Source: Moniliella sp. 'wahieum' (taxonomy: Eukaryota). From it: 64,000 nt of DNA. The stretch lies in contig RSEE01000127.1 of assembly GCA_003971905.1 (NCBI GenBank), forward strand, positions 62,001-126,000. The letters run 5' to 3'. The notes beneath the pieces were generated by a model. It did not search any database. It was not told the DNA's origin and saw only the letters and a program-made list of their open reading frames with translations. The position numbers and the translations under genes are program-made. This document shows, piece after piece, positions 24,542-60,568 of this stretch. How positions within the stretch are numbered: position 1 is the first letter of the stretch; each line of letters opens with the position of its first letter.

Positions 24542-24824
24542 TCGTAACGGTGGCCCAGACACGACTCGCCACTCCCCGCTCACCGTGACCGAGTTGAACC
24601 GTCAACGTGCCAACACATCCTCTTCCCTATCCCTCATCCCTCCGACTGGCTTTTCCTATCTCCTCAGGCCTCACTAGTCACTCCTCACTCCTCACTTGTT
24701 GTTCCCAGATTACTCATACCGTCCCAGTGATTTTTCCTCCTTTCGATTGTCTGCATTCCCCACTCCCACCTCCCTCCCTGCTCTACCCTGAACCTCCGCA
24801 CACATCCCTTCTATCTGACTGGTG

Positions 24825-26715
24825 ATCGATTATCGATTATTGTTGAACGTTGAGGTGGCACATCTGCTTTGGCCAAGCTCCGTTCAGTCCCTCCTCAGGC
24901 CTGGGAGTTCGTTCTGTTGATTACATTGCTCATTTATGTTTTCGTTTTGTTGCGCACCCTAGGCCCTGATGGTAGCGACTGGCTGCTTGATGCACAAGTT
25001 CCTCTGTAGGCGTTGTTGGTTGGTTTTGACCACAAAATCACTACCATTACTGCCATAGTTTGATGGCTGATCGATCTGATCTCGCTCCCATTTCCAATTT
25101 CTTCGTCCCGAAGCGTCTCGCTCTTTCCCTACTGCTTCTTCCTCTAGCCACTTCGCACCATGTCCTCTACTCTGCTTCTTCCCCACGGACGCCGGACTAG
25201 CGTAGCTGTGATGCATGTGATGCTAGCCAGCGTTCGTTGTTGCCTATCTCGGCATCCTGTCGAAGATTATCGATTAGCGCTTAGCGCTAGCATTGAAGCT
25301 TGAAGATTGACATTGAATATTGACCCTTAGGCCCTAGGCCTTAAGAGGTTAAGTTTTAAGGCCTAAGGTGTTGTTTGATGATTAAGATGATTCGCCCATT
25401 CTCTCGGCCCCCTGGGGCTCATGTAGCTTCACAAGCGCGCGCTGACTGGATCTCTCTCTCGTCTTGTGCTGAGCCGTTGGTGGCCCTCCCCCGCAACTCC
25501 CTGTGTGCATGTGAGCGTTCAACGTTCAACGTTCAACGTTCAACGTTCAACGTTGAACCCAATGTCACTGTGAAGGAACTGGTGCTGGATGTGGACGTGA
25601 AGCAGCTGTGTTGGTCCATAGCATGAGCGGCCGGATGGAGACGACTTGGTCAAGCAAAATTACGTGCCGGCTCTTGGCGGCGTGCGGTGCCAGGCGTGGC
25701 CTACCGTGGCCTGCCTGCGCCGATCTGTCTGCAGCAGTGCAGTGGCAGCAGCGACGATCCCATTCAAACGTTCAATTCACTCGACCTGTTCTGTTACTAG
25801 TTACTCCTGCGCTTGGCGTTTCAATTTCAGGCCCAGCCTCCGAACCCGCCGGCCCAGCGTGTTGAAAGTTTGAAGCCTTGTGAGCGCTGAGCTGGAATGC
25901 GCACGGAGGCAGTATGCTGTGCCACACCATGCCGGACCTGTGCTGCACGCGCGGTCACCGGTCACCGGTCATGCATCATGCATCATGCATCATGCTTCCA
26001 TGCCCCACCCCGCTCTGCATGCAGCACTTGAAAATCGGTGGGGCGACACTGACGCAGTGCGTGCGCTTCTTTTGCCCCGCGGGCCAGAAACGTGGCGTTG
26101 CGAGCACGCTGGTGCACTGCTCCGACTCCCGACTGCGTCTTCGCCGGACTCTGTGATCCGAGAGCCGGAAGTGAAAGTGCCAAGTCGCATGTCACATGTC
26201 ACATGTCACAAAGCTTGAAGCTTCAACGTAACCGCGTAACCGCGTAACCAAGGCCCCTCTGCCCACACACCACACAATGGCCAACAAAAACCCCGACACC
26301 AACAAACGAGAGTGAACCTTTGTTCTTACCGAGACCAGAATGCGCAGCTCATCATCTGCTTTTTACGTGTCCGAATTGAAGCTTGAAGCTTGAAGCTTGA
26401 AGCTTGAAGCTTGAGAGCTTGAGGCCGAGGCATCATGACTAGCACTAGGACTGAAGAACGTAGTCATGAATCACTAGCCCAGCTGCAAGCGGTGTGCGTC
26501 TGCGCCTGCGCACTCCCGCTCTCTCCAGCGTCGAGCCGCCACGAGTACTAGCCACTAGCCAATGCAAACCGCGAATCTTCTGGATCTGATGGGTCGCATG
26601 ATGCATGCATGATGTGTCATCGTTTTCGTGTCACATGCATGCCCCAGTCACGCGCCTTGAGCCGTGACATGCATGACAGCAAACCGCCCCTGGGCCTGAC
26701 ATGTGACATCCCGCT
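24825..26715. repeat. Cluster of heterogeneous 7-bp palindromic tandem arrays
   Basis: (ATCGATT) 24825; (AACGTTC)x~6 25516-25558; (GGTCACC) 25953 abutting (ATGCATC)x3 25971-25995; (ACATGTC)x3 26188-26210; (TTGAAGC)x5 26376-26413. Confidence 0.92.
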
Positions 26716-27093: not shown

Positions 27094-28132
27094 ATGCCCG
27101 ACTCTACCCCGATTTACAACGCGCTGGTTGCCGTTATTCCGGCCGGCATCCGCAATGAGACGCCAGCTTCGCTCCTGGCGTGGACCCCGCCCCAAACGCC
27201 CATGTCGTCCGCGCGTCTGTCGTCACCGCTGCCGTCGTCTATCTCAGCATCGTCTTTGGTCTGCAGGCGTTTATGCGTTCGCGCCCTGCGGCTGGCAAAG
27301 GCTCCGTATTCCGATCCGTTTTCCTCCTGCACAACATTCTCCTCGCGAGCGGAAGTGGCCTCTTGTTGGCACTCATTCTGGAAGATGTGCTGCCTGTTTG
27401 GAGGAGTGGGGGATTGTTCCATGCTGTATGCTCGCCCACAGCCTGGAGGCCACACCTCGAAACGTACTACATCATCAACTACTACTTCAAGTATTGGGAG
27501 CTGGCGGATACAATCTTCCTCGTCCTCAAAAAGAAGCCTCTCCAATTTTTGCACGTCTACCACCACGCAGCCACTGCCGCCCTTTGCTGGACCCAGCTGA
27601 TGGGCAAGACGAGCGTATCTTGGGTAGTCATTTCGCTCAACCTGACTGTCCACGTCTTGATGTGTATGTACTCTTTTTGTGCTGTTCTGAAGCTTGAAGC
27701 TTGAAGCTTGAAGCTTGAAAGAGGACTAACGTCGAACCCTACTTTCCAGACTTTTACTATGCCCTGTCGACCCTCCGCATTCCTTGCCCTTGGAAGAAAG
27801 CGGTAACCGTGGCGCAGATCACCCAGTTTTTCATCGATCTATTCTTCGTCTACGGCTGCACCTATACCTTCTACGCGCACAAGTATGCTGACGGCATCTT
27901 GCCGCATTGGGGAACTTGCTATGGTACCCCCTTTGCCGCTTTCTCGGGATGCGCCATCTTGTCCTCCTACCTCTTCTTTATTTCCTTTTACCGTTCCACC
28001 TACAACAAAGCGCCCAAACGTGCCTTGGCCAACGGCAAAGCCACCTCCAATGGCAATGGCATTGCCAATGGCAAAGTCACCGCCAATGGCAAAGTCACCG
28101 CCAACGGTAATGGCACCACCAAAAAGGAGTAA
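27094..28132 (+). CDS. Fatty acid elongase (GNS1/SUR4, ELO family)
   Basis: YYIINYYFKYWELADTIFLVLKKKPLQFLHVYHH, SWVVISLNLTVHVLM, QITQFFIDL; C-terminal KKE ER-retrieval-like end; intron 27664-27749. Confidence 0.93.
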
Positions 28133-36800: not shown

Positions 36801-39800
36801 AACCAGCTGCTGTTTCTATGGCTGATCATACCGCTTGAAGAACCAATTCAACACACCCCGTCTTCCCACGCCGTCTCGATCGACTCGACCACTCCGTTGA
36901 GCCAGGCTCTTCGTAATGGAACAATGGATCGTATAGACTTGTTCGCCATATATGGTGCCGATGCGTCCCTACAACTCACTGCCCAATCTGAGGCCCCTGT
37001 TATACCATTAACCATCCTGACACCGGCCCGTCGCTATATGTCATTGCGGCACTTCACTGTCTTGATCCCCTCTCAAGAAGACACTGGATCTTTCTGCTCC
37101 ATAAGAAGACCCCGGGAGAGCAGTTGAGTCATCCAAATCACCCACTTCCACACCCCCTTGAACCACGCGTTAGCAAAAAACGAAACTAACAATCCACTGA
37201 GTGATATGGCCAAAGGAGAGTGGTACGGGGCGCTCCGGTTATCTCCGGACGCTGAGCGCTGAGCCCCGCATGTCGTAGACATCTCAGCCTAACACGCGTC
37301 AGTCCGGTTAGACTAGCGAGAGAGCCAGTCGACACCTTATCCGCATATGGTAATATATAAAAAGGGAGACTAGATCATCTGCGGCCCGCCATGGTCGCAT
37401 GGGCTTATCGGTACGATGCTTTGCGCCCATTGTGCCCAGTCTTGTCAGAACCCTTCCTGCTGCGCCCGACTACGCAGCGTCAGCACTTTGGAGGGTAAGG
37501 CTGTGCTTTAGTCTTTACCGGTTACCTCTCTGGGAAGTGTCTCGCATTCTGTCTATACCTGTCATGGGGTACTTGAGGCTCGGTTTCTTCTGTTGTATAT
37601 AAGCAGCCAGGTCTGAGGCTTGCTAGCTGTGGTCCTTGTCGACCATCCTGTCCCCTACCTTTGGTCTCCCCGACTACCAGTTCCTCTCTCGCCCTCCCAC
37701 CTTCTACCATCCTTACGCTTAGGAATTTACGACTTCAGTCGAGTGCACTGCACGCCGCGGTTCGTCTCATCTTCAGTACTCAGTAGCGCTTGCTCTTCTA
37801 TAGGACTCTGTCTGTTCCCGTCTACTACAACCCGAGTGAGTGGTAACGCTGCGAGGAATAGAGGATAACTTCGGAGCTTCTGGACCCCTTCTGCTGGTCT
37901 ATAACGACCTACGTACGCGACTCCTACCTCGGAGGGTCTGGACTGCGGAATTTGCACGCAGGCAGCCACCCAAACTAGAGGGTCTCTCCCTCGCCTCTAC
38001 ACCCGCTCGGTTCAACCAGGATCTGGAGCAGGACCTAACGTACGAGCCACTGTGATTGATCTGTCCAAGGGTTTATATCCCTAAACTACAGGGGGGTCTC
38101 ACCTCGGGACTCCCCCCATGACAGTGAGGCGTAGGCGTATATAAGCGAATCGAAACGACCAACCGTGCCACTCTACCTGGGGAGAGTAGCAAAGAAGACC
38201 GGGTCTCGACTTGCCCACTGGTGGGACGCGGAAAATGAGTTGGTGGCGCGGGATCAGGTACGACGGGAAGCGGTGCGTAGCCTATGGCATCAACACATGA
38301 CCTCCCTGGTCTCTTTGCGGAAGAAGAGGTTATCTTGCATCGCCCACTGCAGTCACCATTTCAGGTGCGAATAGCACTGGTTATAACGTTTACCGGTTAC
38401 CAGCTATATACTGATTACCTGTATTCCATTGGTAAGGCCCTCTTAAGGCCCTCAAGCCTCCGGCTCAGGACCTCAGGCCTCAGGTGCATAATCGACATGT
38501 GGACGATTGATTAGCTCGATTGGCGTTATCGATTATCAATCTCAGAGGTCTCGAAGCAATCACTGTTTGCACATTAGCCTGGTCTACCAGGGTCTATTAC
38601 TTGATCACTATGTCGACGGGACAGACGCCATCCTAGCTTTCGACCCTTTTCAGCGTTCAGCTCTCAACTCAGATGGATGCACCAGCCGCTCAGTACCCGT
38701 GGTTTTCAACAGAATGCTTGGCAGAGCAGAAGTGGAAGCGGGGCTGGTCGTCGCAGACGAGCGCAGTGGAGAGACCTTGACACGAAAAAAGGTGGCGGGG
38801 AGAGCAGGTGGTATGCGATAATGAGGCCGATGAACGATGATCGAATGATCGATCATGGATAGGCGCTATCATACACCCATGCAACAGCGCATCAGCACGC
38901 GTTAAGCGCGTCAAGCTTCAAGCTTCAAGCTTCAAGCTTCAAGTGCATCGAACACCGGTAACCGGTAACTGGTAACTGTGGTTTACCTTTTCGTAACCAA
39001 GCCACAATAGCATCACTCACGTGCATCACGCATCGCATGGCTACATGTCAGTGGTACGTAAGCGCGTAAGCTGTAAGGATGCTGCCTAGCCATATGCATC
39101 CAGGAGACCAAGGAAACGTCCTGAGACACCCCCTAAGGCTGGTGCTGCACTGGGCCGCTGAGCCGCTCATTGATTGTTCATTCATCGTGTGTGGGACACT
39201 GGCTCAATGCCCGGGAGAGATCAACAAGATCAACGTCAGGATCAGTGATCACGCGTCAAGTGTCGCTCGGTTAATGCATCTCGATCATTTTGAGCACAAG
39301 CCTCATCCACCTGTGCTTTATCCCAGGGCCCCACGCCTATGCACCGAGGGTGTGGCATGGGCAAGCAAGGCCACAGTGCTGGTCGCTGTTCGGCTTCACT
39401 TGTTCCGTTGCGAACAACTGCCATTGTCGATCATCAATTCAAGATTCAGCCAATGACATTCACCGACATCATATGTTTGCGTCCTGCATCCTCTCTCGGA
39501 CCTCATCGACCTCATCGATCAGCAATAGGTCAATCGTCCTCCTCCTTCTTGTTACATGCTATCGAGAATCGCTCTCCAAGCGCCATTTTATACATCGCGA
39601 TGATCGAAGATGATCGAATTATACGAGGAAGCTATAAACCTTGGTCGACAGTTACTAGTTACTATAGTTACTAGCTTTACTAGTTACACGCATATGTTAT
39701 CACTACAGCTCCGGGTTATCTTAATCGGTCTTATCTCTTCTTTATCGATTATCGACGTCGGAGAGCGATCAATGAGTACTGTGTTACATGGGGTATAGCC

Positions 39801-40645
39801 CTGCAGCCCTGAGATCCTGAGACCTGAGGCTGGGTCTCGCGCCTGGTATAGAGGAGAGACAGGGGTCCGAGCAAAACGGTGTAATGCGCTCATGCCCTCA
39901 CAGACAGGCCTCAGGCCCCAGGGCCTCAGGGCCTCAAGCTCAAGCTTCAAGCTTCAAGCTTCAACCTTCAAGCCACTTCGATCTGCATCACGCCTTAGGC
40001 CTTAGGGTATCAGGTATCATGCATCAAGTCCATCAGGACCTAATACAGCACTTAGCGCTTATCGATTATCGTATACACGGACGATACACGGTAACCGGTT
40101 TAACTCAAAGCCCCGAAAAGGGATAGATCGAAAATACCTCCGCAGATGTTGACGGCACTGTTTAAACCACATGTCTGTACCATGTGGTATGGCAGAGTAC
40201 AGAGATGTGATCGTGTTCATGAGATCTGAGAGTACGAATAAACGTAGTAAACATTTTACGTTGGTGCCAACCTGAATATTTACCTGTCAACTGCATGTCA
40301 ACGTTCAACAGGCCATACCTATCAACATCATCATGCATCAACCGCCATCAGTGAATCAGTGTGCAACAGCCACTTCGCGTTGTAACTCATGTCTTGAGGC
40401 ATGCGATCCGAAAGTTATCATGCATCATGCATCATGCATCATGGTACATGGTACAGGCCATGCTTAGGTCGCGCGATCACCAGCCTGAGAGCGATCATAT
40501 ATCGCTTATCCAGTTTATCGGCGAGGGATGGGGGTGGCCGTGGCGGCTAAGGATATCGATGATCATGCGTTGCACCGCCATTGGCGTCAGTACCCAGTAA
40601 CGCGTATACTATGAGCGATCTCCATTATTACCCAGTGTGATGATA

Positions 40646-40655
40646 TGTATATAAG
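40646..40655 (+). promoter_or_regulatory. TATA-like box of S53 copy A
   Basis: tgtatataag ~80 bp upstream of the ATG; kept in arm B (cttatataca, ~56049-56058). Confidence 0.5.
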
Positions 40656-40729
40656 CCTGGTTGGGCAACGCGCCCAACTTGCACTGTTCTGCCCCTGTCT
40701 GACCAGCTACCTTCGCAGCTCCTTCCGAC

Positions 40730-42648
40730 ATGTTCAACAAGAACCTCTCACTTCCGTGCTCGTTCTGGCCGCCGCCGCTGGAGCCGGCGCGCATCGTTGC
40801 GCCTAAGCAGATCCCCCATGTTTACTCCGTCGGTACCCCCCAGTCGACCCTTCTACTGAGGTGACCTACTCGTGCAGCTCCGGCCGCAGGCCAGGCGGCG
40901 CTGGACAACAAGATGGCTGAGATTGCCAAGTCGGACAGCAAGTGGCTCTCGGATGAAGAGCTCCAGGGCTACACTCGTGCCTCGGATGCCCACGTCCAGT
41001 CGGTCAAGGCTCACTTGACCAAGTTTGGAGGAAAAGACATTAAAATCAACAAGTGGGGGGACAAGATCACCGTCACTCACTCGGCCGAAGAAGCCAACGC
41101 AGCCTGGTCAGCCAATCTGTCCCACTACACTCACAGTGTCACGGGCAACAAAATCTTGCGTACTAGTCAATACACTGTGCCGGATGAGCTGCAAGATGCT
41201 GTCGTCAACGTTCACCCCTTTACGTCGTTCAACAATATTCGCCGCTCCGTTCCCATCCTGAAGCAAAAGATGATCGAAGAGCGCTCTGCGAGTGGTGGCT
41301 GCAACGACGACGCCTCTCTATCAGCTGCATCAAGTCCCAGTATCAGTCTTCCGGCTACACACCCAGCCCCCAGAGCGGGACTGTTGACACCCTCGTCATG
41401 GGCTATGTTGGCGAGTACGTTTCGCAGAGCGACCTCACCTCGTTCATGCAATCCCAGACAGACCATGGTTCATACAAGGTCACCATCGAAACTGCGGGTG
41501 GTGCCACGAATGACCCCAGCAACCCTGGTACCGAGGCCATGCTCGATGTGGAAATGGTTAGTGGCATCAGTGCCCCCCTCCACACCACATTCCTTTCCTA
41601 CGGAAGCACCAACCCTTCCAATGACGACTTCTTTGTCGACAGTTTTGACTACGTTCTTGATCAGAGGTGCGTAGTTGGTTTTCCTTTCTCTGCTGTTTAC
41701 TCCAACTGACTTTCTGTTGTAGCACCAAGCCCGGTGTGATTACTATCTCGTACGCCGACGATGAGTCAAATTTCTCCGACAGTGATGCTCAATCGCTTTG
41801 CAACGCTGCCCAGAAGTTGACGGCGGGCGGTACTACGGTTGTGGTTGCCGCAGGCGACAACGGTGTCAACTCCAACCAGGTTTGTCCCATTTCCTAATAC
41901 CCCTCTCGTTTCTCCCACCCATCCTTTTTCCGAGATCACCACGGCTCAATGTTGTGTATTAACTGATTCTCGTTGGATCGCTCTCATGAACACAGGCATC
42001 TTCGGGAGAGTCGTGTGCCCAATCATTCAACCCCACCTTCCCCTCTGGCTGCCCTTACATCTTGTCTGTAGGTGCAACCCAGAACACGAGCCCCGAGGTC
42101 CCGGTCGATGGAAGCAACGAGAGCGGTTTCTGGAGGTACGTTCACTGTTATTCCCTTCCTCTTTAGTTACCAAGCTGCTGTGCTAATTTCTGACTCAAAT
42201 GAACACAGTGGTGCTGGCTTCTCCAACATCTTTGACGCCCCTTCGTACCAAGCGAGCCAAGTCAAGTCGTATGTCAACAGCATTGGCAACCTAGACAGCG
42301 GCAAGTACAACCGCAATGGCCGCGCCTTCCCCGACTTGGCTGCCCTTGGTCTCAACGTGCAGATCACCGTATCGGGGCAAGACACGACCGTAGGCGGTAC
42401 CAGCGCTGCCGCGCCCATTGTGGCAGCTCACATTGCCTTGCTGAACAACTACCGCGAGCAAAACGGTAAGGGCCGCGTGGGTTGGTTCCACTCCAAGCTG
42501 TACGACAACCCTTCGGCCTAACCGACCTTACTACGGGCAAGACGGGTGGATGCTTTGAAGATAACACTCTCTACTTCCCTGCCAAGCAGGGCTGGGACCC
42601 GGCCAGTGGTCTCGGCACTCCCTCTTCCAGGCTTGGCAGAATCTCTAA
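40730..42648 (+). CDS. Secreted S53 sedolisin / tripeptidyl-peptidase-like protease, copy A
   Basis: Signal peptide MFNKNL.., prodomain, catalytic E-x3-D (GTEAMLDVE), oxyanion AAGDNG, catalytic Ser GGTSAAAP, GRAFPDLAA, GWDPASGLGTP; three introns; indels present. Confidence 0.92.
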
Positions 42649-43088
42649 ACGGCTCTGTCAACTCTGATCCCTGAGACTGCCGCTGATGCTGGCGCCGCGC
42701 TTTGGGGGGTCTTCGATGCTCCTGATGATCATAGGGGTCTTCGATGTTCCTGACGACCATACGAGTCGTTACTTTCCTTTGCCTCTTATGGGTGTTGATT
42801 TCCGACACCAAAACTGGAGAGGCGTGCTTGCACATGCCTCCTCTTCTTTTGCACCCCCTCTCGCTCTGCTTACTACTCGAATAAGCGAGAGCACTGTTCT
42901 TTCTTGTAACTAATGCCACTAACGGATCCACGAGTTGTACCACATGGAACGCAGAGGGTATTCTCCGACCAGTAGTACTATATATAGGTGTGCCATCACA
43001 GGGGATCGGTCACAGTGAGCCTGGACGAGGTTAAGAAGAATCGAAGAGTGGTGTGGAGGTAGGGGAGACAGGACACCATAATCTACTT

Positions 43089-43172
43089 ATACTGTGTGCA
43101 TACGTGTGCATACTGTGTGCATACTCTGTGTGCATACTGTGTGCATACTCTGTGTGCATACTGTGTTCATAC
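43089..43172. repeat. Minisatellite (TGTGTGCATAC, 10-13 bp units), 7 units
   Basis: Read directly; 5 units in the inverted copy at 53542-53600. Confidence 0.9.
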
Positions 43173-43586
43173 GTTCATCTCGCTACTAAGCATACCCACT
43201 GCACTCTGCTCCAGCTGATGCCCACTCGAATCCCTCCCAGCTCGTCCCATTCTCCTTGTGGCCACCACCATTGATCCGATGACCAGGACCAGACTTTCCG
43301 TCTTTTGGTCACGGCATGCTATTTGGTCCTTTTTCCTCATCATCGTCGCCCCCTTACGCATCTAAGTCTTCGTCTTCGCTGCTGTCCGACAGGGACTGTT
43401 CTCTCCCTTGCTCATCCTCATCCAATCGCTGCGCAGAGCTTTCTGCTTCTTCGTCACTGGATGAGGGATAGTCCGATTGGCGGTCGCTTTCCCTTTCCCG
43501 TGCCGGCGCGGCTTGTCCCGATTGGTGGTGTTTCTTGAGGCATTTTCATTTCCCGCCGCATCCTTTCTTGGTGTGGCATTCTTCCC

Positions 43587-46500
43587 TCATGCGCGGTTCT
43601 TGCCTTTCGTCCTCGTGCCTCGCGGGTTTCCGGTCGGCGTACCCCCACGCCTACGGGAGACGCTTCGGATGAGACCTTCCCGATCTTGAATCTGCGTTGG
43701 CTTGGACAAGTACAGCGACATCCAGGGTCGGGATTTGGGCGGGGTCCTCAGTTGGAACTCAACAAGAATGTGGTTCTTGGTACTTGGACGTTGGGCAACG
43801 AATCCTTTCAAGATTTCCACTCCTTCAGAGTGTACGATTCGCACGGATTTACCCTCCCCTTCGATCTTGCAGTGCTGATTGCAGGCATGGGCCAGTCCCG
43901 GCACGCAGCCTATATCTTTCGCCAGGGCAAAGCGCTCCTGGCAATCTTCAAGTGGGTGCACGATACGACACCCAGTTGGCGCATGTACTTTGTCCGTGAT
44001 TAGCCAGGGCTGGTATCCGACCCATACCTCATTTGGTGCATCACCAGCGTGGGCCCTGGAAGGCCTACCTAGCCGGAGTACTTTTCCAAGAACGTATGGG
44101 GCTTGGTTCCCGGCAGGTTGTTCACTAGGCTTCACGTCGATGGTAATGTAGACACCGGCCTTGACCAGCTCGCCCGTCTCGGTGATAACGGAGCGCACAC
44201 TAATGAACTTGGGTACCGCCACGCTCTGTGCCCCCGACAGGACCTGGCGAGGTCTTCCGGCTTGAGGTCTGGATGGAGCGATTGATACATCATTGGCATA
44301 TCCACGTAATGCCCGCTTTGGGCGCCATACAGTTCAGATACGCCTAGGGCACGCTCGGTGGATGGATCAGTTGGGCTGGCCCACGCGCGTGCGATAGGTT
44401 CAGGCGGCTCCTTTGCGGTCCCTCAGCATCCAGCTCTTCTTGCGCGTTGTCGTCCGGGGGTCCGTCGCGGGACAATAGTTGCACTGCGCCTCGGACAGCC
44501 ATGTGACGAATCACATCACTGTCTGAGTTCTGCTCATTTGTCAGAGAATGGGCATCTCGAATAATATCCGCGTACGCTCCTTCTGAGGATGCGTCCAGCG
44601 TCCGCGCTGTCCATATTGCCTGATGGCTGGAATTGCATGGCACATCAAGGTGTGCATCTTGGCTTCTCGAGCAACTGGGCCGGCGTAATGGCTCAAGGCG
44701 CGAGAGAGTGTCAAACCAGGTGGAAGAGAGATTGTTCAAGGTCAAACTTGGGTTAAAGCAGAGGTTAGAAAGTCATCGTGATCAATGTGGGCGAAGCTGC
44801 AAAGAACGTACCAGGTATCCTTTACCAGATTGGTTTTCTTCGACATACACTTCTGATGGAAGAGGAACTGAACACGGGCTGCAGCTTGGATGGCATTGTA
44901 GAGAGGCGGGGGGGAAATAGAAATCCGAATCTCGTCCTCGACTTCCACCCCCCGATGGTTCTATCATCGGGGCGGCTGCAATGGGAATGAGGACAAGCCA
45001 GGTCCTGACATCTTGCCCCGTAGCCGACCACATATTGGCCATAGCTCCCGCACCCGGTGTTGTTGGCCATCTATTCCTTGCAGGCATGCCGGGCTGACTG
45101 CCTCCATGTACACCTGGAGACGATCTTTGGCCTTGGAACTTAGCGTGTAATCCATCAGGAGCATGAGTTCTAAGCCGTCCCACGAAGAAATGTATGGAGA
45201 TAATCGAATGGGAAAGCTTCGCAACGGGAAAATCTTCCAGCTCCAGGAGAGGAGAGTTGGGGAAGCCAGTTTTGCGCAGAGTGGCTAGACGCTCTTTGTT
45301 GCGCTCAATAGCTTCTGAGTCGGATAACCCATTCGCAGTGGAGCCTGGTGTTCTGGTCTCCGAACCCCTGTGTCTCGCCAAATCAACCTCCCTCTGAGCG
45401 GTAAAATGGAACTGGTGGATGATCTTGTCCTCAACGTCATGGGCCTTGGCAAGAGCGTCGTACTGATGGCGGAACCCAATGATCGAATTGTCAGCTTGAA
45501 GGGCAATGACGCGCTTGATCTTCTCATTATTGCGTGCTTGTCCTGGCGTTAGGATGGCTCGAATCCGCTGTTCCGAGGCAATGTCAAGGTTTCGCTCCGG
45601 GAGATCCGTAAAGGATGTGCACATGTGGCAATACCCTTTTACAAACGTCAAGGTGGAGCTCAGTGCCGCGTGGCACAGGTTGTCAGCGTTGACACATAGG
45701 AGCTTGGGTACCAAGATGAGATTCTCGCCCGTTACGCCGTCTCTCACAGCCACACCGCTCTTGCTCAAAGCTTGAAGTTCCTTAACCAATGGTTCACATA
45801 TACCGACTTCGCTGGCGCGTGTACTTGTAGCATAGACATGAAGAGCGAGGCGGGAGGCAATATAGTCCGAAGAAAGGGCAGCCGATCGAACGATGATCAT
45901 GGTGCGCATGCGGTTTCTTGGCGTGGGGCAGAAAATCGGGCATCGTCGAGCGACATAATCAGAGGTGCTATGAGAACCTTGATGCGGTCGGGATCGGGAG
46001 ACAATGCTCGGTAAGGATTCGGCGGCATCGCCTTCCCTTCAGTGTCGACAAGTTTAACCCTGCGTGCCGTTTCGCCCAAGGACCCAAGGCTGCTCAGTAG
46101 CACGACGTGCTCTTTGCCCGTCCTCGTCAAAATAACAGGATCAGACTCGGTACCATCAGCCAGGGGCCGGTCAAGTCGTAGTTGCTCAATGATCGCCATG
46201 GCATCTCGAGTCCCTTCAGTATCCTCTTTCCAAAACCAAACGGTCGGTCTCACGAACCTTAGGGCAGCCCCAGTTCTTTTAGACCATAAAGCTGGCTCAT
46301 GGAGCCAAAGAAGTGACTCGTCGGTCAGACGTATTGAAGGTTGTCGAACTGTCCGGTAGCGTGAGCCGTCACTGATGTTCTCGCACAGGTCGCGAACGAC
46401 TGGCATGTCACTCATAGCCTCCCGCAACTCTCTTGATTGGTACATTAGCGGAAGAATGTCCACAAGGCTCCTAGTAGACACCTGCTTTGCACGGCCATCA

Positions 46501-47764
46501 GCCGTTGAAAATACGTCCTTGGGCTTTCCAGCACTCGCTTCCTCAATGGCGTTGAGCTTGGAGAGGGTTGGAATAGGGTATTCTGGGTAAAGTTGGGCAA
46601 TTTTTAGGAGAGCCAAGCACTGCAGTTTGCAGTCTTCGGGCCAGGAAACTGTTAACTCGTTGAACCACGCTGCCTGTTCCTGATCCTGCGGTGTACCCCA
46701 TATATTGAATCGTTAGCAATGTAGACGGTAGGACTTGAATGACGTACCAGGATGTCCTTCAAAGCTGCGAACTCATCGGTATCCAATTCATCCTGGGACA
46801 TAGCTACCATTGGAAGGTTGGCGCTGTGGTTGGCACGTTTGTCCCGTGCCTTTCGCGAATGGCTCTGACGGGGGCCAGAGTCATCTCTTAAGGGGGCAGA
46901 AGAATCATTTGGCACCTTGCGCTGGGGACCCGCAATATACCCTAGCAACGTTCGAAGGGCTTTGTCCTTCTCAGTGTCATCCACGTCTTGGACTGGTGTG
47001 TGGATATCTTCATAATCTTCGTCTTCATCCATGTCATCGGTCGTGATGGGGTTATGGCTCTGACGGGGGGCAGAGTCATCTCTTAAGGGGGCCGAAGAAT
47101 CCTTTGGCACCTTCCGCTGGGGACCCGCAATATACCCTAGCAACATTTGAAGGGCTTCGTCCTTCTCAGTGTCATCCACGTCTTGGACTGGTATGTGGAT
47201 ATCTTCATAATCTTCCTCTTCATCCATGTCATCGGTCGTGATGGGGTTATGGCTCTGACGGGGGGCAGAGTCATCTCTTAAGGGGGCCGAAGAATCCTTT
47301 GGCACCTTCGGCTGGGGACCCGCAATATACCCTAGCAACGTTTGAAGGGCTTTGTCCTTCTCAGTGTCATGATTTGTTTGTCGGAGAGGGGAAGCGGAAC
47401 GGGCCAATTCTCCTGGAACGGACCGAGATGAAGAGGGGATCGCCTTCCGATTTCCGGTAGCCTGCCGGTTCCGATTGCGTCGAGAAGCCTCAGCACGTTT
47501 CTTTTGATGCTTGGAAGAAGTGGCATGCTTCATGGCGGCGCTGAATCGTTTTGGTTCTCCGCCGCAAAGGAGACATTTGTACCCAAACACCGTCCCACCG
47601 TAGAGGGCATGCAAATTGGGCGTAGCCATAACTTGCCATTCCGGTTGCCCTGGGCTGTTCTTCTCGCTTGTGGCAAGGGAGGCAGCGGATTCGAGGTCTT
47701 CGAAGTTTTGCAGAGTTTTCTCAGGCAGTGGAAAGTTAGAACGACACTCACGCCAGACCGGCAT
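43587..47764 (-). mobile_element. Large basidiomycete CACTA/CMC-like DDE transposase gene (frameshifted ORFs 46652-47764, 45897-46616, 44782-45909, 44344-44745, 43587-44222)
   Basis: N-terminal CxxC..H..H finger; motifs LWLHEP..VRPTVWF, PPNPYRAL..PLIMSLDDA, LLCVNADNLCHAALSS..YCHMC resemble, from memory, the PNPWR..LYCDD..ADNP..CR.C transposase-like family of rusts and agarics. Family assignment is not search-verified. Confidence 0.6.
46858..47370 (-). repeat. In-frame 195-bp (65-aa) tandem repeat, ~2.6 copies, within the transposase-like ORF
   Basis: DTEKDKALQTLLGYIAGPQPKVPKDSSAPLRDDSAPRQSHNPITTDDMDEEEDYEDIHIPVQDVD recurs; anchor cttctcagtgtcat ends at 47370, 47175 and 46980. Confidence 0.95.
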
Positions 47765-48649
47765 GATGTCCAATGGTCGACGTGCAAAGAGTCTTCGAGA
47801 GGTGGCCTGTGCTGGTTGGAGTGATGCTGGACGGTCGAAGCGCAGTAGCAGGTTCTGCTTGACACGTGCGCACCACGGTGCGCGTGAGAAAATACCGCGG
47901 AAGTCAAAAGTCAAATGCGGAACGCGCAAGGCGCGCGGAACTCGGGACTAAACGCGTCGCGAATAAGGACCGGCGCGGGTGCGCTGGTGCGGGTTTGCTC
48001 TCGAGGCTACAGAGACCCCTGAGGCCGGCATTAATAGTGCAAAGACATTATACCCGGCGATTCACGAGTTCAATTCCCCCCCAATCCCACCCTCTCTGAG
48101 ATCTGATCGATCTGATCGATCTGACCCCACATCCCAGATCACACACCACCGAACCTCCGCATTCCCACCATGACCATATACATTGCACGAACTCTTTTGG
48201 GACACAGCAGCAGTCTATAGCAAGCCCATCCCCGCCGCGTCGCAACACATCGTAACTAATGCCGTGACATTTTCTAAGCTCTTCCCGTTTTCGCTTGAGC
48301 ATCACTATCAATCGCCCCGCGCTTTTCCCGCGGAGGCATGCTTGATTCGTCGATGGCAATAAGGCGAGTGTACACAATAAAATGCGCCTCACATCTGCAC
48401 TTTGCTCGAGTCCATTGTCTCCCTAGACCATCTCATATGGCTCTATCGACCGCCATGACCCACCTCCGACGGGTTTGCAGGCTTTTGTGAGGAGAATCCA
48501 TCATTTCGTTCCATCAACAGTATGTCAGGCCCGCTGAATGGTAGGTACCCCCACCCCCCCACCCCTGCGCCCAGGTCCATTCGAATGCCATGCGGAGATG
48601 GAGAGGTCGAGGTGGAAGGAAAGCGGGATGCAGAGAAGCTTCACTGCGC

Positions 48650-52382: not shown

Positions 52383-52398
52383 ACACCAATGTGAGTTG

Positions 52399-53366
52399 AA
52401 GGTGCCAAATGATTGTTCGCCCCCCTCAAGAGATGACTTTGCCCCCCGTCAGAACCATTCGCGAATGGCGCGAGACAGACGTGCCACCCACAGCGCCAAC
52501 CTTCCAATCAGCGCCAACCTTCCAATGGCATCTGCGTCCCAGCATGAATTGGATACCGATGACTTCGGACCTTTGAAGGACATCCTGGTACGTCATTCAA
52601 GTCCTACCGTCTACATTGCTAACGATTCAATATGGGGTACCGCAGGATCAGGAACAGGCAGCGTGGTTCAACGAGTTAACAGTTTCCTGGCCCGAAGACT
52701 GCAAACTGCAGTGCTTGGCTCTCCTAAAAATTGCCCAACTTTACCCAGAATACCCTATTCCAACCCTCTCCAAGCTCAACGCCATTGAGGAAGCGAGTGC
52801 TGGAAAGCCCAAGGACGTATTTCAACGGCTGATGGCCGTGCAAAGCAGGTGTCTACTAGGAGCCTTGTGGACATTCTTCCGCTAATGTACGAATCAAGAG
52901 AGCTGCGGGAGGCTATGAGTGACATGCCAGTCGTTCGCGACCTGTGCGAGAACATCAGTGACGGCTCACGCTACCGGACAGTTCGACAACCTTCAATACG
53001 TCTGAGCGACGAGTCACTTCTTTGGCTCCATATGAGCCAGCGTTATGGTCTAAAAGAGCTGGGGCTGCCCTGAGGCTCGTGAGGCCGACCGTTTGGTTTT
53101 GGAAAGAGGATACTGAAGGGACTCGAGATGCCATGGCGATCATTGAGCAACTATATACGACTTGACCGGCCCCTGGCTACTGGTACCGAGTCTGATCCTA
53201 TTAGTTCGACGAGGACGGGCAAAGAGCGCGTCGTGCTACTGAGCACCCTTGGGTCCTTAGGCGAAACGGCACGTAGGGTTAAACTTGTCGACACTGAAAA
53301 GGGAAAGCGATTATGCCGCCGAATCCTTGCCGAGTATTGTCTCCCGATCCCGAACGCATCAAGGTT
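52399..53366 (+). pseudogene. Truncated copy of the transposase-like gene (no 5' end, catalytic core deleted)
   Basis: Matches 45975-46919 inverted (..LLKIAQLYPEYPIPTLSKLNAIEE..RVKLVDTE) and stops just before the LDDA motif. Confidence 0.85.
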
Positions 53367-54042
53367 AGATGATAAAGAATGAAAGGACCAAACAACATGC
53401 TGCGACCAAAAGACGGAAGGACTAGTCCTGGTGATCGGGTCAATGGTGGTGGCCACAAGAAGAATGGGACGAGCTGGGAGGGATTCGAGTGGGCATCAGC
53501 TGGAGCAGAGTGCAGTGGGTATGCTTAGTAGCGAGATGAACGTATGAACACAGTATGCACACAGTATGCACACAAGTATGCACACAGTATCCACACAGTA
53601 TAAGTAGATTATGGTGTCCGTCTCCCCTACCTCCACACCACTCTTCGATTCTCTCTTAACCTCGTCCAGACTCACTGTGGCCGATCCCGTGTGATGGCCA
53701 CACCTATATAGTCCAACTGGTCGGAGAATACCCTCCGTGTTCCATGTGGTACAACTCATGGAGATAGTAGTAGTGGCATTAGTTACAAAAAATATACCCT
53801 CGCTTATTAGTCGGAGTAAGCGGAGGCAAGAGGGGTGTGCAAAAAGAGTAGGCATGTGCAAGCACACGCCTCTCCAGTTTTGGTGTCGGAACAACAAAAC
53901 CCATAAGAAGGCAAAGGTGAGTAACGACTCGTATGGTCGTCAGGAACATCGAAGACCCCTATGATCATCAGGAGCATCGAAGACCCCAAAGCGCGGCGCC
54001 AGCATCAGCGGCTGTCTCAGGGATCAGAGTTGACAGAGCCGT

Positions 54043-55972
54043 TTAGAGATTCTGCCAAGCCTGGAAGAGGGGAGTGCCGAGACCACTGGCCGGGTCCCAG
54101 CCCTGCTTGGCAGGGAAGTAGAGAGTGTTATCTTCAAAGCATCCACCCGTCTTGCCCGTAGTAAGGTCGGTTAGGGCCGAAGGGTTGTCGTACAGCTTGG
54201 AGTGGAACCAACCCACGCGGCCCTTACCGTTTTGCTCGCGGTAGTTGTTCAGCAAGGCAATGTGAGCTGCCACAATGGGCGCGGCAGCGCTGGTACCGCC
54301 TACGGTCGTGTCTTGCCCCGATACGGTGATCTGCACGTTGAGACCAAGGGCAGCCAAGTCGGGGAAGGCGCGGCCATTGCGGTTGTACTTGCCGCTGTCT
54401 AGGTTGCCAATGCTGTTGACATACGACTTGACTTGGCTCGCTTGGTACGAAGGGGCGTCAAAGATGTTGGAGAAGCCAGCACCACTGTGTTCATTTGAGT
54501 CAGAAATTAGCACAGCAGCTTGGTAACTAAGAGGAAGGGAATAACAGTGAACGTACCTCCAGAAACCGCTCTCGTTGCTTCCATCGACCGGGACCTCGGG
54601 GCTCGTGTTCTGGGTTGCACCTACAGACAAGATGTAAGGGCAGCCAGAGGGGAAGGTGGGGTTGAATGAAGAGTCACACGTCTCTCCCGAAGATGCCTGT
54701 GTTCATGAGAGCGATCCAGACGAGAGAGTCAGTTAGTACATAAATCAAAGGACGTGTGTTGGTGATCTCGGAAGAAGGATGGGTGGGAGATACGAGATGA
54801 ATATTAGGAAATGGGACAAACCTGGTTGGAGTTGACACCGTTGTCGCCTGAGGCAACCACAACCGTAGTACCTCCCGCCGTCAACTTCTGAGCAGCGTTG
54901 CAAAGCGAATGGGCATCACTGGGAGAAGTTTGACTCATCGTCACCGTACGAGATAGTAATCACACCGGGCTTGGTGCTACAACAGAAAGTCAGTTGGATA
55001 GAACAGCAAAGAATGGAAAATCAATTACGCACCTCTGGCCGAGAACGTAGTCAAAACTGTCGACAAAGAAGTCGTCATTGGAAGGGTTGCTGCTGCCGTA
55101 GGAGAGGAATGTGGTGTGGAGGGGGGCACTGATGCCACTAACCATTTCCACATCGAGCATGGACTCGGTACCAGGGTTGCTGGGGTCATTCGTGGCACCA
55201 CCCGCAGTTCGATGGTGACCTTGTATGAACCATGGTCCGTCTGGGATTGCATGAACGAGGTGAGGTCGCTCTGCGAAACGTACTCGCCAACATAGCCCAT
55301 GACGAGGGTGTCAACAGTCCCGCTCTGGGGGCTGGGTGTGTAGCCGGAAGACTGATACTGGGACTTGATGCAGCTGATAGAGATGGCGTCGTCGTTGCAG
55401 CCACCGGCACTCGCAGTGCGCTCTTCGATCATCTTTTGCTTCAGGATGGGAACGGAGCGGCGAATATTGTTGAACGACGTAAAGGGGTGAACGTTGAGGA
55501 CAGCATCTTGCAGCTCATCCGGCACAGTGTATTGACTAGTACGCAAGATTTTGTTGCCCGTGACACTGTGAGTGTATTGGGACAGATTGGCTGACCAGCT
55601 GCGTTGGCTTCTTCGGCCGAGTGAGTGACGGTGATCTTGTCCCCCCACTTGTTGATTTTAATGTCTTTTCCTCCAAACTTGGTCAAGTGAGCCTTGACCG
55701 ACTGGACGTGGGCATCCGAGGCACGAGTGTAGCCCTGGAGCTCTTCATCCGAGAGCCACTTGCTGTCCGACTTGGCAATCTCAGCCATCTTGTTGTCCAG
55801 CGCCGCCTGGCCTGCGGCCGGGAGCTGCACCGAGTAGGTCACCTCAGTAGAAGGGTCGACTGGGGTACCGACGGAGTAAACATGGGGGATGCTTAGGCGC
55901 AACAATGCGCGCCTGGGCGCCAGCGGCGGCGGCCAGAACGAGCACGGAAGTGAGGAGGTTCTTGTTGAACAT
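54043..55972 (-). CDS. Secreted S53 sedolisin / tripeptidyl-peptidase-like protease, copy B
   Basis: MFNKNLLTSVLVLAAAAGAQA signal peptide; GTESMLDVE, ASGDNG, GGTSAAAP, GWDPASGLGTPLFQAWQNL*; same intron layout as copy A. Confidence 0.92.
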
Positions 55973-58194
55973 GTCGGAAGGAGCTGCGAAGGTAGCGGGT
56001 CAGGCAGGGGCTGTGAACAGTGCATGCTCAGCGCGTTTCCCGACCAGGCTTATATACATACCATCACCACTGACGCCAACGGCGATGCAACACATGATCA
56101 TCGATATCCTCAGCCTCCTCCGCACCCCTCCCCCCTGCCGACAACCTCGATAAATGATCGCTTTCAGGCTGGTGATCGCGTGATCTAAGCATGGCTTGTA
56201 ACATGATATGCTTTCGGATCGCATGCCACAGACATGTGTTACGACGCGAAGTGGCTGATGCCAGTGACGTACTGATGGCGCTGATAGGTATGGCCTGTTG
56301 ACAGGTAAGTACTAAGTACTCTCAGGTTCTTGGCACCAACGTAAAAGGTTTACTAGTTACTACGTTTATTAGTACTCACGCGTCACGAACAGCACGATCT
56401 CATTTCTGTACTCTGCCATACCACATGGTATAGACATGTGGTTTAGACAGGGCCGACAACATCTGCGGAGGTATTTATATTATCCCTTTTCGGAGCTTTG
56501 GGTTAAACCGGTTACATGTTACAGGTTACCGGTTACTGCAGATACGATAGGCACTGTATTAGGAGGCCCTGATGGGCCTGATGCATGATATACTTCAGCC
56601 TGAGACCTGAGCTCAGGCGTGATGCGTGATGCAGATCGAAGTGGCTTGAAGCTTGAGCTTGAGAGGCTAAGCGCTGAAGCTAGCGCGCTCAAGAGCCTCC
56701 GCCTGTGAGCATATGAGGCCGGAGGTATGTCTGTGAGGCCTGAGTATATGAGCGATGAATATGAGCGCATTACACCGGTTTGCTCGGACCCCTGTCTCTC
56801 CTCTATACCAGGCCCGAGACTCAGTCTCAGTCTCAGGATCTCAGGACCACAGGGCTATACCACATGTAACAGTACTCATTGTTCGCTTTAAGATGTCGAT
56901 AATCGACAAAGAAGAGATAAGACCGGTGTATATAACCCGGAGCTTTTGTAACATGCGTATAACATGTTAACATGTCGATTAAAAGGTTTATAACTTCCTC
57001 ATTATTCGATCATCGCAATGTATAACGGCGCTTGGAGAGAGATTCTCGATAGCACGTAACGAGAAGGGAGGAGACGATTGATCTATTGATGATCATGAGA
57101 TCCGCGAGAGGACGCAATATGCAGGACGCAAAACATATGATGTCGGTGAATGACATTGGCTGAATCATGAATCATGAATTGATGATCGACAATGGCAGTT
57201 CTTCGCAACGGAACAAGTGAAGCCGAACAGCGACCAGCACTGTGGCCTTGCTTGCCCATGCCACGTCTCGCTGCATAGGCGTGGGGCCCTGGCATCGAGC
57301 AGGTGGAGGCGTGTGCCCAAAATGATCGAGATGCATCAACGTTGTTCAGCCGAGCGACGCTTGACGCGTGATCGCTGATCAATGATCCTGACGTTGATCT
57401 TGTTGATCTCTCCCGGGCATTGAGCCAGTGTCCCACAGCACGATGAATGGACGTCACGTCCAATCGATGAGCGGCTCAGTGGCTCGGTGCAGCACCAGCC
57501 TTCGGGGGTGTCTCAGGGGGTTCCTTGGTCTGTTAGATGCACATGGCCATGCAGCATCCTTACGAACCACTGACATGTGGCCATGTGATGTGTGATGCAT
57601 GTGAGTGATGCTATTGTGGCTTGGTTAAGATCGAAAGAACAGGTAAAACCGGTTACCGGTATTCGATGCACTTGTGAAGCTCTTGAAGCTTGAAGCTTAA
57701 CGCGTACTGATGCGCTGATGCATGATGTGTATGATAGCGCCTATCCATTATCGATCATCGGCCTCATCGGATACCACCTGCTTTCCCCGCCACCTTTTCG
57801 TGCCAAGGCCTCTCCCAACGCGCTCATCTGCGACGACGCAGCCGCTCCGTCACCTTGCTTTGCCAAGCATTCTGTTGAAAACCACACGGGTACTACTGAG
57901 GGCTGATGAATCCATCTGTTTTGAGAGCTGAAAAAGGGTCGAAAGCTATAGGATGGCGTCTGTGTTCCGCCGACATAGTGGCCAGTAGACCAGGTAGACC
58001 CTGGTAGACCAGAGGCTAATGTGCAAACAGTGATTGCTCGAGACCTCTGATATTGATGATCGACAATCGATAATCGATAAGCCAATCGAGCTAATCAATC
58101 GTTCACATGTCGATTATGCACCTGAGGCCCTGAGTCGGAGGCTTGAGGGCCTTACCAATGGAATATGGGTAACCAGTATAGCTGGTGAAAACTT

Positions 58195-60568
58195 TATTGT
58201 TGGGACCCGTGGTCCCGTACTTAGGCCAAGGTGCCTCATCACCCTTCACCCCTGATTTGTCCTCCCAAGCCTCCACGTGTATACTCAGGCTTGTTTGAAC
58301 CCCTGTCCCTAGGTGGCACAAGGCTTAGACCTCAACCACCACCATCGCGATTTGCATTGCTCTACATCTCCAGAGGTTCTCACCCAATCCTTGGGTTCCT
58401 CCGGTCTTACATTTATAGCCGGTGTTTTACTCCTGAGGTGCTGGGCGATGGAAGAGAACCACATCGCAAAGGGGCCAGGGATGTCTTCGTGTGTTGATGC
58501 CATATTATAGGCTACACAGCCAGTCGCGTCCAAGGCGAAATTGTATTTAGCACAAAGTCCAAGGCAATAATTTTGAGTGGCACTAATTTCTAACCACGTG
58601 AGACGCCTACAGCCTTTTTGCAGTCCAAGGTACAAATGCCTTGGTGCTCTCCAAGGTAAATCTGGCCCTGCCAAAGGCCGTCATATCAACCCCAAATTGC
58701 CTTCGTCGTCTCCAAGTCCACTTCTTCTTCAGTTTCCTCAAGTACAAATGGCCTACATTCACGGGAAGGCTAGTACTACGGCCTTCGAATGTGGCAACGC
58801 TCACTGGAAGCCATACTGCATACCGGCAGCGAGGTTCGTTAGAATGAATCAAATGCATTTCGGGCGATGGTCGACAAGAGCCCACGAAGAAAGGATAGAA
58901 ACGTGAGATTCAGGATGAGCAAGTTCGTGTACCGCAGTTTGGGCATTCGGGTTCTAAGTGCGAAGTACGAGGGGAGTTTGCCTCGGTTGGCCTCGCAATT
59001 CTCTTGTCCATCATGAGCACATCGATCCATACCCTAATGAACATTTGGCGGTTAGGAGCGGAGCCTTCCCTCGTCTCAAATGTACGCATGCACTTGGCGC
59101 TGAAGTGATTGGACCTTTGCTTGCACCGGTTTTCCTGACAGAAACTGTAAAAGGCTTAGCCAGTGAAATGAGTCAATCTCCAAGCAAGGCAGAGTCGGGG
59201 GAGAATGGAAAAGATGTTTAGTAACGAGTAACATGGTTAGTAACGAGTAAGATGGTTATACACACCGCTTCCTGTACTAATGCCTGTTCCAGCGCCACCA
59301 ACTCATTTGCTGCGTCCCAGTGGGGAAGTCCGGACCAGGGCTTCTTTGCTACTCTCCCCAGGTGGATTCGAGGGACACGGTTTGATCGTTTTGACTCGCT
59401 TATATGTTGACTGTGATCATCCGGCTCCCAGTCTGTAGACCAGGTTCGCCTCGGTTTCATCGGCTGCCACGCTGGTGTCCCAGCGTGTTATTGTCCCTGT
59501 GCTCTGCACTCTCCTGTGTGACTCACTGGCCCTGTGCCTAGTCCGGCCTCCGATATAGATGCCTCTGTACCCAGACTCAACTCTGGCTCTAATAATCCAT
59601 CACCTTCTCCTCATCCTTCTGCCCGTCTGGCTCCCTATATGCCAACATTATACACGCCTCTGCCTCACTCCTTAGGCCTTACCATTCAGTGGATCTTGTT
59701 AGTTTCGTTTGTTGCTAACGCGTGGTTCAAGGGAGTGGAAGTGGGTGATTAGGATAACTTGACTGCTCTCGGGTCTTCTTATATGGAGCAGAAAGATCCG
59801 GTGTCTTCTTTGAGAGGGGATCAAGACAGTGGCGTGTCGCAATGACATATCGGGATGGGCCGGTTTCAGGATGGTTAATGGTACAACAGGGCCTCAGATT
59901 GGGCAGTGGGTTGTAGGGACGAATCGGCACCATATATTGGCGAACAAGTCTATACGATCCATGTTCCATCACAAAGAGCCGGTGGGACTCGAGCGGGGAT
60001 CGGGACAACTGGAGAGGCCTCTCGGCACATAGAATAACGGACTGCTTGTGTGGTAAGGTTACGCACAGGCACCGTCCTAGGCAGTAGTAAAACGTGCCTG
60101 AAGCCATTCGTACTCAGGGGCGGGGATAAAGGCAGTGGGGACAAGCACTGACCAAAATTGGATTGAAGGGGGAGGGGGGAAACAGTGATTGGAGCTGAGA
60201 CCAGAAAAGCTTCGACTGAAAGTTCCATGGATTGGATTCTGCAAAGCCAAAACACTGAGTGGCGGACAATCAGGCCCGAAAGGTGTGGGAATCAGAAAGG
60301 CGAGGAGGCGGAGAGAGAGATAAGCAAGTAAGAGGAGGAGTTGCCTGTACCGTGTATGGATCAGATTGGCGGAAGTGGGGAAGCCAATTGTAACAGTTGG
60401 GGCTAAGAGTGAGAGACAAAAGAGCCTGTGAGTGACAGGGAGAATGTCAAGGCTCTGTTGGTGGGAGGGAACAAGAGGCATCGGGCAGTCGGGAAGAGAA
60501 GCAACAGGGAGGGGAAGGGCGAAATACAGAGGATGTGGCGTTGGAAATTAGAGCGATGACCTTCGGCG
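58195..60568 (-). mobile_element. Heavily decayed LINE-like retrotransposon relic
   Basis: Pieces recur at 585-820, 36905-38350 and 52084-52382. Broken minus-strand peptide RGLLSTIARNAFDSF..MQYG..QNYCL resembles the post-RT region of LINE ORF2; AATAAA at its 3' end (~58193-58198). No intact RT motif seen. Confidence 0.4.

Follow-up and report, generated by a model that had tools for sequence, protein, structure and literature searches.

Hairpins on the DNA flanking an excised element, together with palindromic P-nucleotide footprints, are described for hAT elements, Transib, RAG1 and one Mutator-like element (MULE), Muta1, in passages of PMC5499845. For Ac/Ds in a fungus, passages of PMC5873905 likewise report flank hairpins, and describe an empty donor site that is repaired by end joining and keeps palindromic insertions and short deletions. 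An Artemis-like nuclease, Pso2, is named in those parts of both papers. Target duplications of 7 base pairs (bp) are attributed in part of PMC12730594 to fungal hAT7 elements (in rusts) and to Kyakuja elements. The DNA analysed here is a stretch of 64,000 nucleotides from Moniliella sp. 'wahieum' (GenBank assembly GCA_003971905.1, contig RSEE01000127.1, positions 62,001 to 126,000 of the forward strand), called the window below and numbered from its first letter. It contains 89 loci at which a few bases have been duplicated and a short inverted copy of the flank has been added at the joint. Such loci, 72 of which hold a single extra unit, are referred to as scars, since they may be the excision footprints of a mobile element.

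The commonest scar follows a simple rule. A triplet T-N-A and the two bases after it (XY) are present twice, and the reverse complement of XY stands between the copies. This exact junction occurs 133 times in the window, compared with 0.1 times in shuffled sequence. Copies of TNAXY separated by exactly two bases number 178 (shuffle mean 6.4), and 133 of these 178 spacers are the inverted XY. At spacers of 0, 1, 3 and 4 bases the counts are 4, 23, 43 and 48, with shuffle means of 6.1, 5.7, 5.9 and 5.4. The rule of a 5-bp duplication plus two reverse-complement bases, put forward in the initial annotation from a handful of cases, therefore holds across the window.

Two further claims made with that rule stand as well. 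One was that either flank can be the template: among 71 isolated sites where a 4-bp palindrome lies between two TNA triplets, 24 are templated from the right, 22 from the left and 12 from both. The other was that the new bases are an inverted copy of a flank, which simple duplication cannot supply; 58 of the 71 sites match a flank in this way (chance about 12%). TNA-palindrome-TNA stands at 113 positions in all (71 isolated sites), where about one is expected by our own arithmetic. Minimal tracts divide evenly between right and left templates (16 and 16), and their run of identity is 5 bases, not 7 (n = 107).

The same signal appears when only the period is considered. Exact period-7 runs with at least five matching positions number 205 against 51 in dinucleotide shuffles, a fourfold excess, and those with at least seven number 57 against 3.5, a sixteenfold excess. 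Other periods show a much smaller excess, except for the coding periods 6, 9 and 12. A 4-bp palindrome lies within the unit in 130 of the 205 period-7 units (37% at random), and in 83 of them the unit is TNA plus such a palindrome, a composition found in 2.2% of random 7-mers. Likewise, the T-N-A triplet is present in 99 of 130 flank-supported scars, while T.A triplets have a background share of 4.6%. There is no consensus past T.A: all four middle bases occur, as do 14 of the sixteen 4-bp palindromes that could exist. Phase is also restricted. Tracts run from T to Y, or the reverse in mirror form, with 44 of 83 tracts occupying 6 of the 49 phase classes.

The bases beyond the inverted pair show that the rule is symmetric. 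In 16 of 19 cases the third spacer base, which directly follows the pair, equals the base preceding the first TNA (chance 25%), and in 8 of 18 cases the third and fourth spacer bases equal the two that precede it (chance 6%). The gains form a series of 133 events of +7, 16 of +8, 8 of +9 and none of +10 or +11, so that the copied segment is 5, 6 or 7 bp and never longer. Taken together, the series and the identity of the extra bases indicate that duplication can involve a segment of up to 7 bp, ab-TNA-XY, with N as its centre of symmetry. The 5+2 rule is refined accordingly and becomes the commonest outcome of a symmetric 7-bp rule. Pure 5-bp duplications are not enriched in the window (4 observed, 4.7 expected), and neither is TNATNA (45 observed, 45 expected). 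One inverted base is found at 10 junctions, two at 133 and three at 1. If the inverted bases come from a hairpin, these counts imply that it was opened mostly at the second nucleotide.

An example in which the outcomes can be seen side by side is the cluster built from the single 7-mer CC-TCA-CT (Table 1). Its junctions are GGCC, which is left-templated, CTAG, which is right-templated, and CT|CC, where the whole 7-mer is repeated; this last type occurs twice and is present at 24678.

Pfam matches of stop-to-stop open reading frames (ORFs) identify the window as fungal DNA, and include Zn2Cys6, arrestin, actin, septin, ELO, protein kinase, ribosomal L6 and sedolisin (Pro-kumamolisin/S8) families. 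Scars are scarce in coding DNA. Pfam-supported ORFs cover 23% of the window and contain only 3 of the 89 loci, one of which lies between two pieces of an ELO ORF. The loci are clustered in upstream and intergenic stretches, with 13 in 24001-26000 and another 13 in 38001-40000. A TGAAGCT array of 4.6 copies (27688-27719) stands exactly between two ORF pieces of the ELO-family gene and is presumably intronic. One perfect heptamer array, GGTAGAT in 4.7 copies at 7439-7471, is an exception to the rule, with neither a palindrome nor a T.A triplet.

Part of the window is present twice, which allows individual scars to be compared with the homologous sites. The inverted arms A and B described in the initial annotation are borne out by alignment blocks of 78-94% identity. 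A sedolisin-type gene lies in arm A, and the region upstream of it, 38400-40640, is dense in repeats. The annotation had listed five +7 differences between the arms, and all five exist in the sequence, though not equally cleanly. In event 1, AGTAAAC in arm A corresponds to AGTAA-CT-AGTAA-AC in arm B, a clean +7 with flanks matching at 13 of 15 and 14 of 15 positions. In event 3, arm A has TCATG(CATCATG)x3 where arm B has a single TCATG. For event 2, TCAAC-GT-TCAAC-AGG in arm A against TCAAC-AGG in arm B fits the rule, except that arm A is longer by 18 bp (11 + 7) and only the nearest seven conform. Events 4 (TTACC-GG-TTACC in arm A, TCACC in arm B) and 5 (ACTTA-GT-ACTTA in arm B, ATTTA in arm A) are both +7, with one base of the 5-mer differing in each; the left flank of event 4 is poor (8 of 15) and both flanks of event 5 are weak (7 of 15 and 4 of 15).

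Table 1. Positions in the window of the scars compared, the inverted arms and the transposase-like gene
Feature	Positions	Strand	Remark
Scar TTACT-AG-TTACT (event 1, arm B)	56350..56361	+	One copy in arm A
Scar TCAAC-GT-TCAAC (event 2)	40298..40309	+	Preceded by an 11-bp insertion outside the rule
Array TCATG(CATCATG)x3 (event 3)	40418..40443	+	Three extra units in arm A; one copy in arm B
Scar GTACA-TG-GTACA beside event 3	40440..40455	+	Rule obeyed with a non-TNA triplet; single TTACA in arm B
Scar TTACC-GG-TTACC (event 4)	38390..38401	+	Single TCACC in arm B
Scar ACTTA-GT-ACTTA, arm A orientation (event 5, arm B)	56306..56317	-	
Scar TCAGG-CC-TCAGG	38471..38482	+	Arm B shorter by exactly 7 bp; flanks 12/15 and 15/15
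Scar CCTCATC-GA-CCTCATC, +9 class	39501..39516	+	Whole 7-bp unit plus two inverted bases; second copy absent in arm B
Scar TTATC-GA-TTATC	40059..40070	+	Single CTATC then GTAT in arm B (alignment read by eye)
Right-templated scar TGAGA-TC-TGAGA, arm A	40220..40231	+	Same TGA scarred differently in arm B
Left-templated scar CG-TGA-CG-CG-TGA-GT, arm A orientation, at the homologous TGA of arm B	56376..56387	-	
Cluster from the single 7-mer CC-TCA-CT	24660..24696	+	All three predicted junction types
Run of ORFs with faint likeness to a CACTA/Plavaka-type transposase	43590..47947	-	Only transposase-like gene seen
Arm A of the inverted duplication	36905..46919	.	Sedolisin-type gene inside
Arm B, inverted copy of arm A	52399..59982	.	

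About 20 scar sites can be distinguished in the arms (27 comparison rows, grouped by us). Some 12 are found in one arm only, 3 are equally long in A and B, 4 are arrays with unequal copy numbers, and 1 is a TGA that is scarred in both arms but with different insertions. This last site is informative, since differing insertions at one TGA mean that bases were added after the duplication in one arm at the least, and on the simplest view in both. The earlier suggestion that the process was active after the arms had formed is thereby supported. A weaker outcome was obtained for the expectation that 7-bp indels would be over-represented in a formal alignment of the arms. The flank filter was passed by 85 of 170 indels, 19 of which are at least 4 bp long. 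Among these, 7 bp is the commonest length (4 of 19, with one of 6 bp, one of 14 bp and two of 15 bp), and yet the excess is modest in the alignment alone, because the repeat-dense stretch aligns ambiguously.

Some arm differences contain an inverted copy of neighbouring sequence with no direct duplication. An arm-specific insertion of this kind, ATATCGC, follows GCGATCAT at 40499-40505, and arm B has two more, GCTGAACAAC before GTTG opposite A 39175 and GGACGTGAC before GTCC opposite A 39269. These look like longer hairpin-derived joints.

The +7 events are, on balance, probably the excision scars of a cut-and-paste DNA element. Direct observation extends to the sequence rule and its symmetry, the limit of 7 bp, counts well above chance, the scarcity of scars in coding DNA and their arm-specific occurrence; the element itself is not among these observations. 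In the proposed mechanism, the element would insert at nnTNAnn and duplicate 7 bp, ab-TNA-XY, on either side. At excision each flank would be sealed as a hairpin exactly at the boundary between flank and element, as RAG1 and Transib do; this step is suggested by the geometry of the scars. The palindromes would be even because both flank hairpins closed exactly at the boundary, and their being even and centred on the junction argues that there was no offset nick.

Host nucleases would then open both hairpins two nucleotides past the tip. The left end would carry the four-nucleotide 3' overhang XY-Y'X' (Y'X' being the inverted copy of XY) and the right end b'a'-ab, with both duplexes stopping at TNA. 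These ends may be joined overhang against overhang, either by removal of one overhang or by ligation of the strands over a four-nucleotide mismatch that replication later parts. The right-templated product would be ab-TNA-XY-Y'X'-TNA-XY, which is the 5+2 rule as first described, and the left-templated product ab-TNA-b'a'-ab-TNA-XY. One prediction of this scheme is that the mirror products should be equally frequent, each with a net gain equal to the target duplication, +7. If the hairpin on the losing side were opened at the first nucleotide or at the tip, the +8 and +9 classes would result. Later rounds, or slippage, could add the same unit inside a scar and build a homogeneous heptamer array; further rounds would extend it with an identical unit because the two overhangs inside a scar are complementary. 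Changes in array copy number surely come in part from slippage.

A more specific proposal can be made only tentatively. The source may be a low-copy cut-and-paste element of an undescribed kind that has long been hopping through the promoters of this fungus, combining boundary hairpins of RAG/Transib type with a 7-bp nnTNAnn duplication and leaving a deterministic +7 scar at each visit. Its low copy number could let such an element escape repeat-directed genome defence.

Several observations weigh against excision as the source of the scars. No element with a 7-bp duplication and inverted termini lies in the 64-kb window, despite its 89 scars. The two-base spacer is not an inverted copy in 45 of 178 cases, and several arm indels fall outside the rule (the 11-bp insert at 40287, TAAGGCCCTC-T at 38433, and tandem copies of 9-10 bp). 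Whole-7-mer junctions are rare, with 3 T.A-in-phase loci among 15 non-palindromic runs of at least seven. The 7-bp cut-off rests on small numbers (16, 8, 0, 0), which do not firmly exclude a smoothly decaying distribution. The polarity of any single event is inferred, as no outgroup polarises one. Finally, the CACTA/Transib clade, where the one transposase-like gene of the window finds a faint home, makes duplications of 2-5 bp according to passages of PMC12730594.

The scars might also be made without any mobile element. A host nuclease, for instance a domesticated transposase, could break open chromatin at nnTNAnn and produce two hairpin-capped ends with a common 7 bp, whose repair would give the same scars. 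The lack of a resident element in the window and the clustering of scars in the two upstream and intergenic stretches fit this idea. It is unlikely all the same, since an identical duplex 7 bp on both ends requires that the segment was duplicated beforehand or that the ends were filled in ahead of hairpin formation; we know of no nuclease that gives two ends with the same duplex 7 bp at a single site, and a low-copy element would escape notice in a window of this size. The excision model can also be retained with a literal 5-bp geometry, in which the target duplication is TNAXY, recognition is asymmetric, and P-nucleotides form only on the flank that ends in XY. Although the dominant class of 133 junctions is exactly 5 + 2, and duplications of 5 bp are the Transib/RAG norm and also occur in hAT5 (passages of PMC12730594), this version is distinctly improbable. 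It leaves unexplained the extra bases that copy those before TNA, the whole-7-mer junctions at 24678 and the total lack of P-nucleotides on the T side, and a 7-bp unit is the simpler explanation for a T-N-A target that is symmetric and gives left and right outcomes equally often.

Replication slippage, or microhomology-mediated gain and loss, in heptamer arrays that already existed would make the short alleles deletions between 5-bp repeats. Some arrays do have more copies in one arm than in the other (at 38911, 38526/58080 and 40418), near self-complementary units favour slippage, and each arm difference, taken singly, could reflect the loss of 7 bp. As a general account this is nevertheless very unlikely. 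Slippage is unable to make the first copy, because the short allele does not contain the two inverted bases, and 72 of the 89 loci have just one extra unit. Nor does it explain the T-N-A rule, the 14 palindromes or the phase rule. Microhomology-mediated tandem duplication requires the short allele to have repeats on either side of the unit, which it lacks. Arrays of selected protein-binding sites, or an assembly artefact, are scarcely credible. Selection would suit the enrichment of scars upstream of genes, but 14 palindromes and all four middle bases are used, and an artefact would not give diverged arms in which some scars are common and others different.

Five further models were worked through by hand and ruled out. 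Footprints from element ends, like those of Tc1/mariner elements, are excluded by the 14 different palindromes that match the flanks. A 3-bp TNA duplication with hairpins cannot yield two copies of ab and XY; the offset geometry of hAT predicts odd palindromes; and a symmetric 5-bp nTnAn duplication predicts a gain of +5. Template switching and flap ligation fail because there is no microhomology before TNA.

Searches for the element itself covered the window. Inverted termini with duplications of 3-9 bp gave 44 matches, with repeats of 3 bp (28), 4 bp (13), 5 bp (2) and 6 bp (1) and none of 7 bp. In the window, 7-bp nnTNAnn repeats flanking inverted ends gave 12 matches among 1218 pairs, array artefacts only. 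In 64 kb, an element with few copies would easily go unseen.

Just one transposase-like gene was seen, a run of five consecutive minus-strand ORFs that look like one large decayed or intron-split gene. It has a sub-threshold match to Transposase_21 (E = 0.004), and 2 of its 7 distant relatives weakly match the same part of that profile. Its language-model neighbours carry Plavaka or Transposase_21 domains, and the alignment shows invariant D, N and CxxC columns. For the ORF at 44785-46038, word-based homolog searches were empty, an exhaustive search gave 7 weak matches (best E = 3e-7), and the AlphaFold model has a predicted local distance difference test (pLDDT) score of 35. The clade of this gene has motifs in common with RAG1/Transib, as passages of PMC12730594 describe. 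No partner end for the gene was found in the window, and no link is drawn between the gene and the scars.

Arm A has 2630 extra bases relative to arm B at 43344-45975, and arm B retains just the part of the gene that matches 45975-46918, the pattern expected of an internal-deletion derivative. Immediately outside the gene, both arms have tandem 11/13-bp repeats (unit ATACTGTGTGC), at 43089-43172 and 53542-53601. They are reminiscent of CACTA-type subterminal repeats; elsewhere in the window there is no inverted end and no repeat matching ATACTGTGTGC.

Other features of the arms concern their structure. Arm B alone has a 751-bp insertion at 58510-59262, with the near-identical direct repeats GGTGTGTA and GGCTGTGTA at its bounds. 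One end has 19-bp repeats and the other several CCTTGGA motifs, and inverted termini are lacking. The insertion may represent a non-autonomous element whose duplication, of 6-8 bp, is not centred on T.A. The sequence just inside the inner end of arm B (52084-52386) is repeated directly just outside its outer end (59981-60571) with 89-92% identity, and direct repeats of a few hundred bases therefore bracket this arm. At the inner boundary of arm A is a 195-bp tandem repeat in 2.6 copies (46859-47443), one partial inverted copy of which is found at 52398-52458. Two small families of dispersed repeats, with 76-83% identity, are present at 1718-1910, 16120-16305 and 61693-61797, and at 671-817 and 58269-58402. 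Relatives of the sedolisin ORF were sought in metagenomes, where 117 pattern matches gave none that was confirmed.

If the scars are indeed excision products, the past activity of a mobile element can be read from DNA that is free of the element, by means of a strict sequence rule. The scars alone would give the target (nnTNAnn), the length of the duplication (7 bp), the boundary-hairpin chemistry and the opening of the hairpin by the host at the second nucleotide. They would also offer a definite route by which heptamer repeat arrays arise, and one by which promoter indels turn over quickly when young gene duplicates are compared. Under the more tentative proposal of an undescribed low-copy element, excision scars would rank among the main sources of promoter indels in this fungus and would give rise to heptanucleotide microsatellites. 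The upstream region of the arms has about one scar per ten base substitutions, which is a rough estimate of ours and not a count. At 89 loci in 64 kb, they would amount to a major mutational force in this genome.

Among known processes, microhomology-mediated tandem duplication and microsatellite slippage likewise add and remove short tandem units in non-coding DNA and vary the copy number of arrays. They copy existing sequence only, however, and are unable to add two inverted bases or a T-N-A centre. The flanking arms and exactly tandem long allele of a microhomology duplication are not seen in the window, where short alleles do not contain the inverted dinucleotide. The scars share more with flank-hairpin footprints: an inverted flank copy stands at the joint (133 junctions against 0.1; 58 of 71 sites), and both copies of the target duplication are kept round it, with 5, 6 or 7 bp repeated. 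No occupying element lies within the 64-kb window.

hAT elements (Ac/Ds, Ascot-1), including those of fungi, are alike in their flank hairpins and palindromic insertions. Their target is nTnnnnAn, which does not match nnTNAnn, and their 8-bp duplication is not found in the scars, whose unit is at most 7 bp. hAT excision nicks one base into the flank, and the palindrome is centred on the complement of that base, according to passages of PMC5873905. The nick there is offset by one nucleotide, in contrast to the even, junction-centred palindromes of the window, where only 3 of 43 three-base spacers consist of one base plus the inverted XY.

PIF/Harbinger elements (mPing/Tourist) have a T-N-A target with a free middle base, together with 3-bp duplications and precise excision, in passages of PMC4561436. 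The triplet agrees with that of the scars. These elements excise via 5' overhangs, whereas in the window TNATNA is not enriched and the duplicated unit reaches 7 bp. Kyakuja (KDZ) elements make 7-bp duplications like the one proposed here (passages of PMC12730594); no Kyakuja-type protein was detected in the window.

The closest comparison is with Transib and with the coding ends of V(D)J recombination by RAG1/2. There, the hairpin forms right at the boundary, and its opening a few nucleotides away from the tip leaves an even palindrome of flank bases (hairpin chemistry in passages of PMC5499845); for the window the same course is suggested by the scars. Their even XY|Y'X' junctions are of this boundary-exact type, although no element or end resembling a recombination signal sequence (RSS) was seen in the window. 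Transib and RAG duplicate 5 bp, while the scars point to 7 bp centred on T-N-A: the 5+2 class dominates, yet the +8 and +9 classes copy bases before TNA. V(D)J joints are also far less uniform than the scars, which are mostly exactly +7. A full-text search, with most subscription journals outside its reach, found no published account of such heptamer scars, of a 7-bp nnTNAnn target or of this scar density, and a prior description is possible. Thus, the chemistry of excision is known, while the geometry, uniformity and scale of the scars look new.

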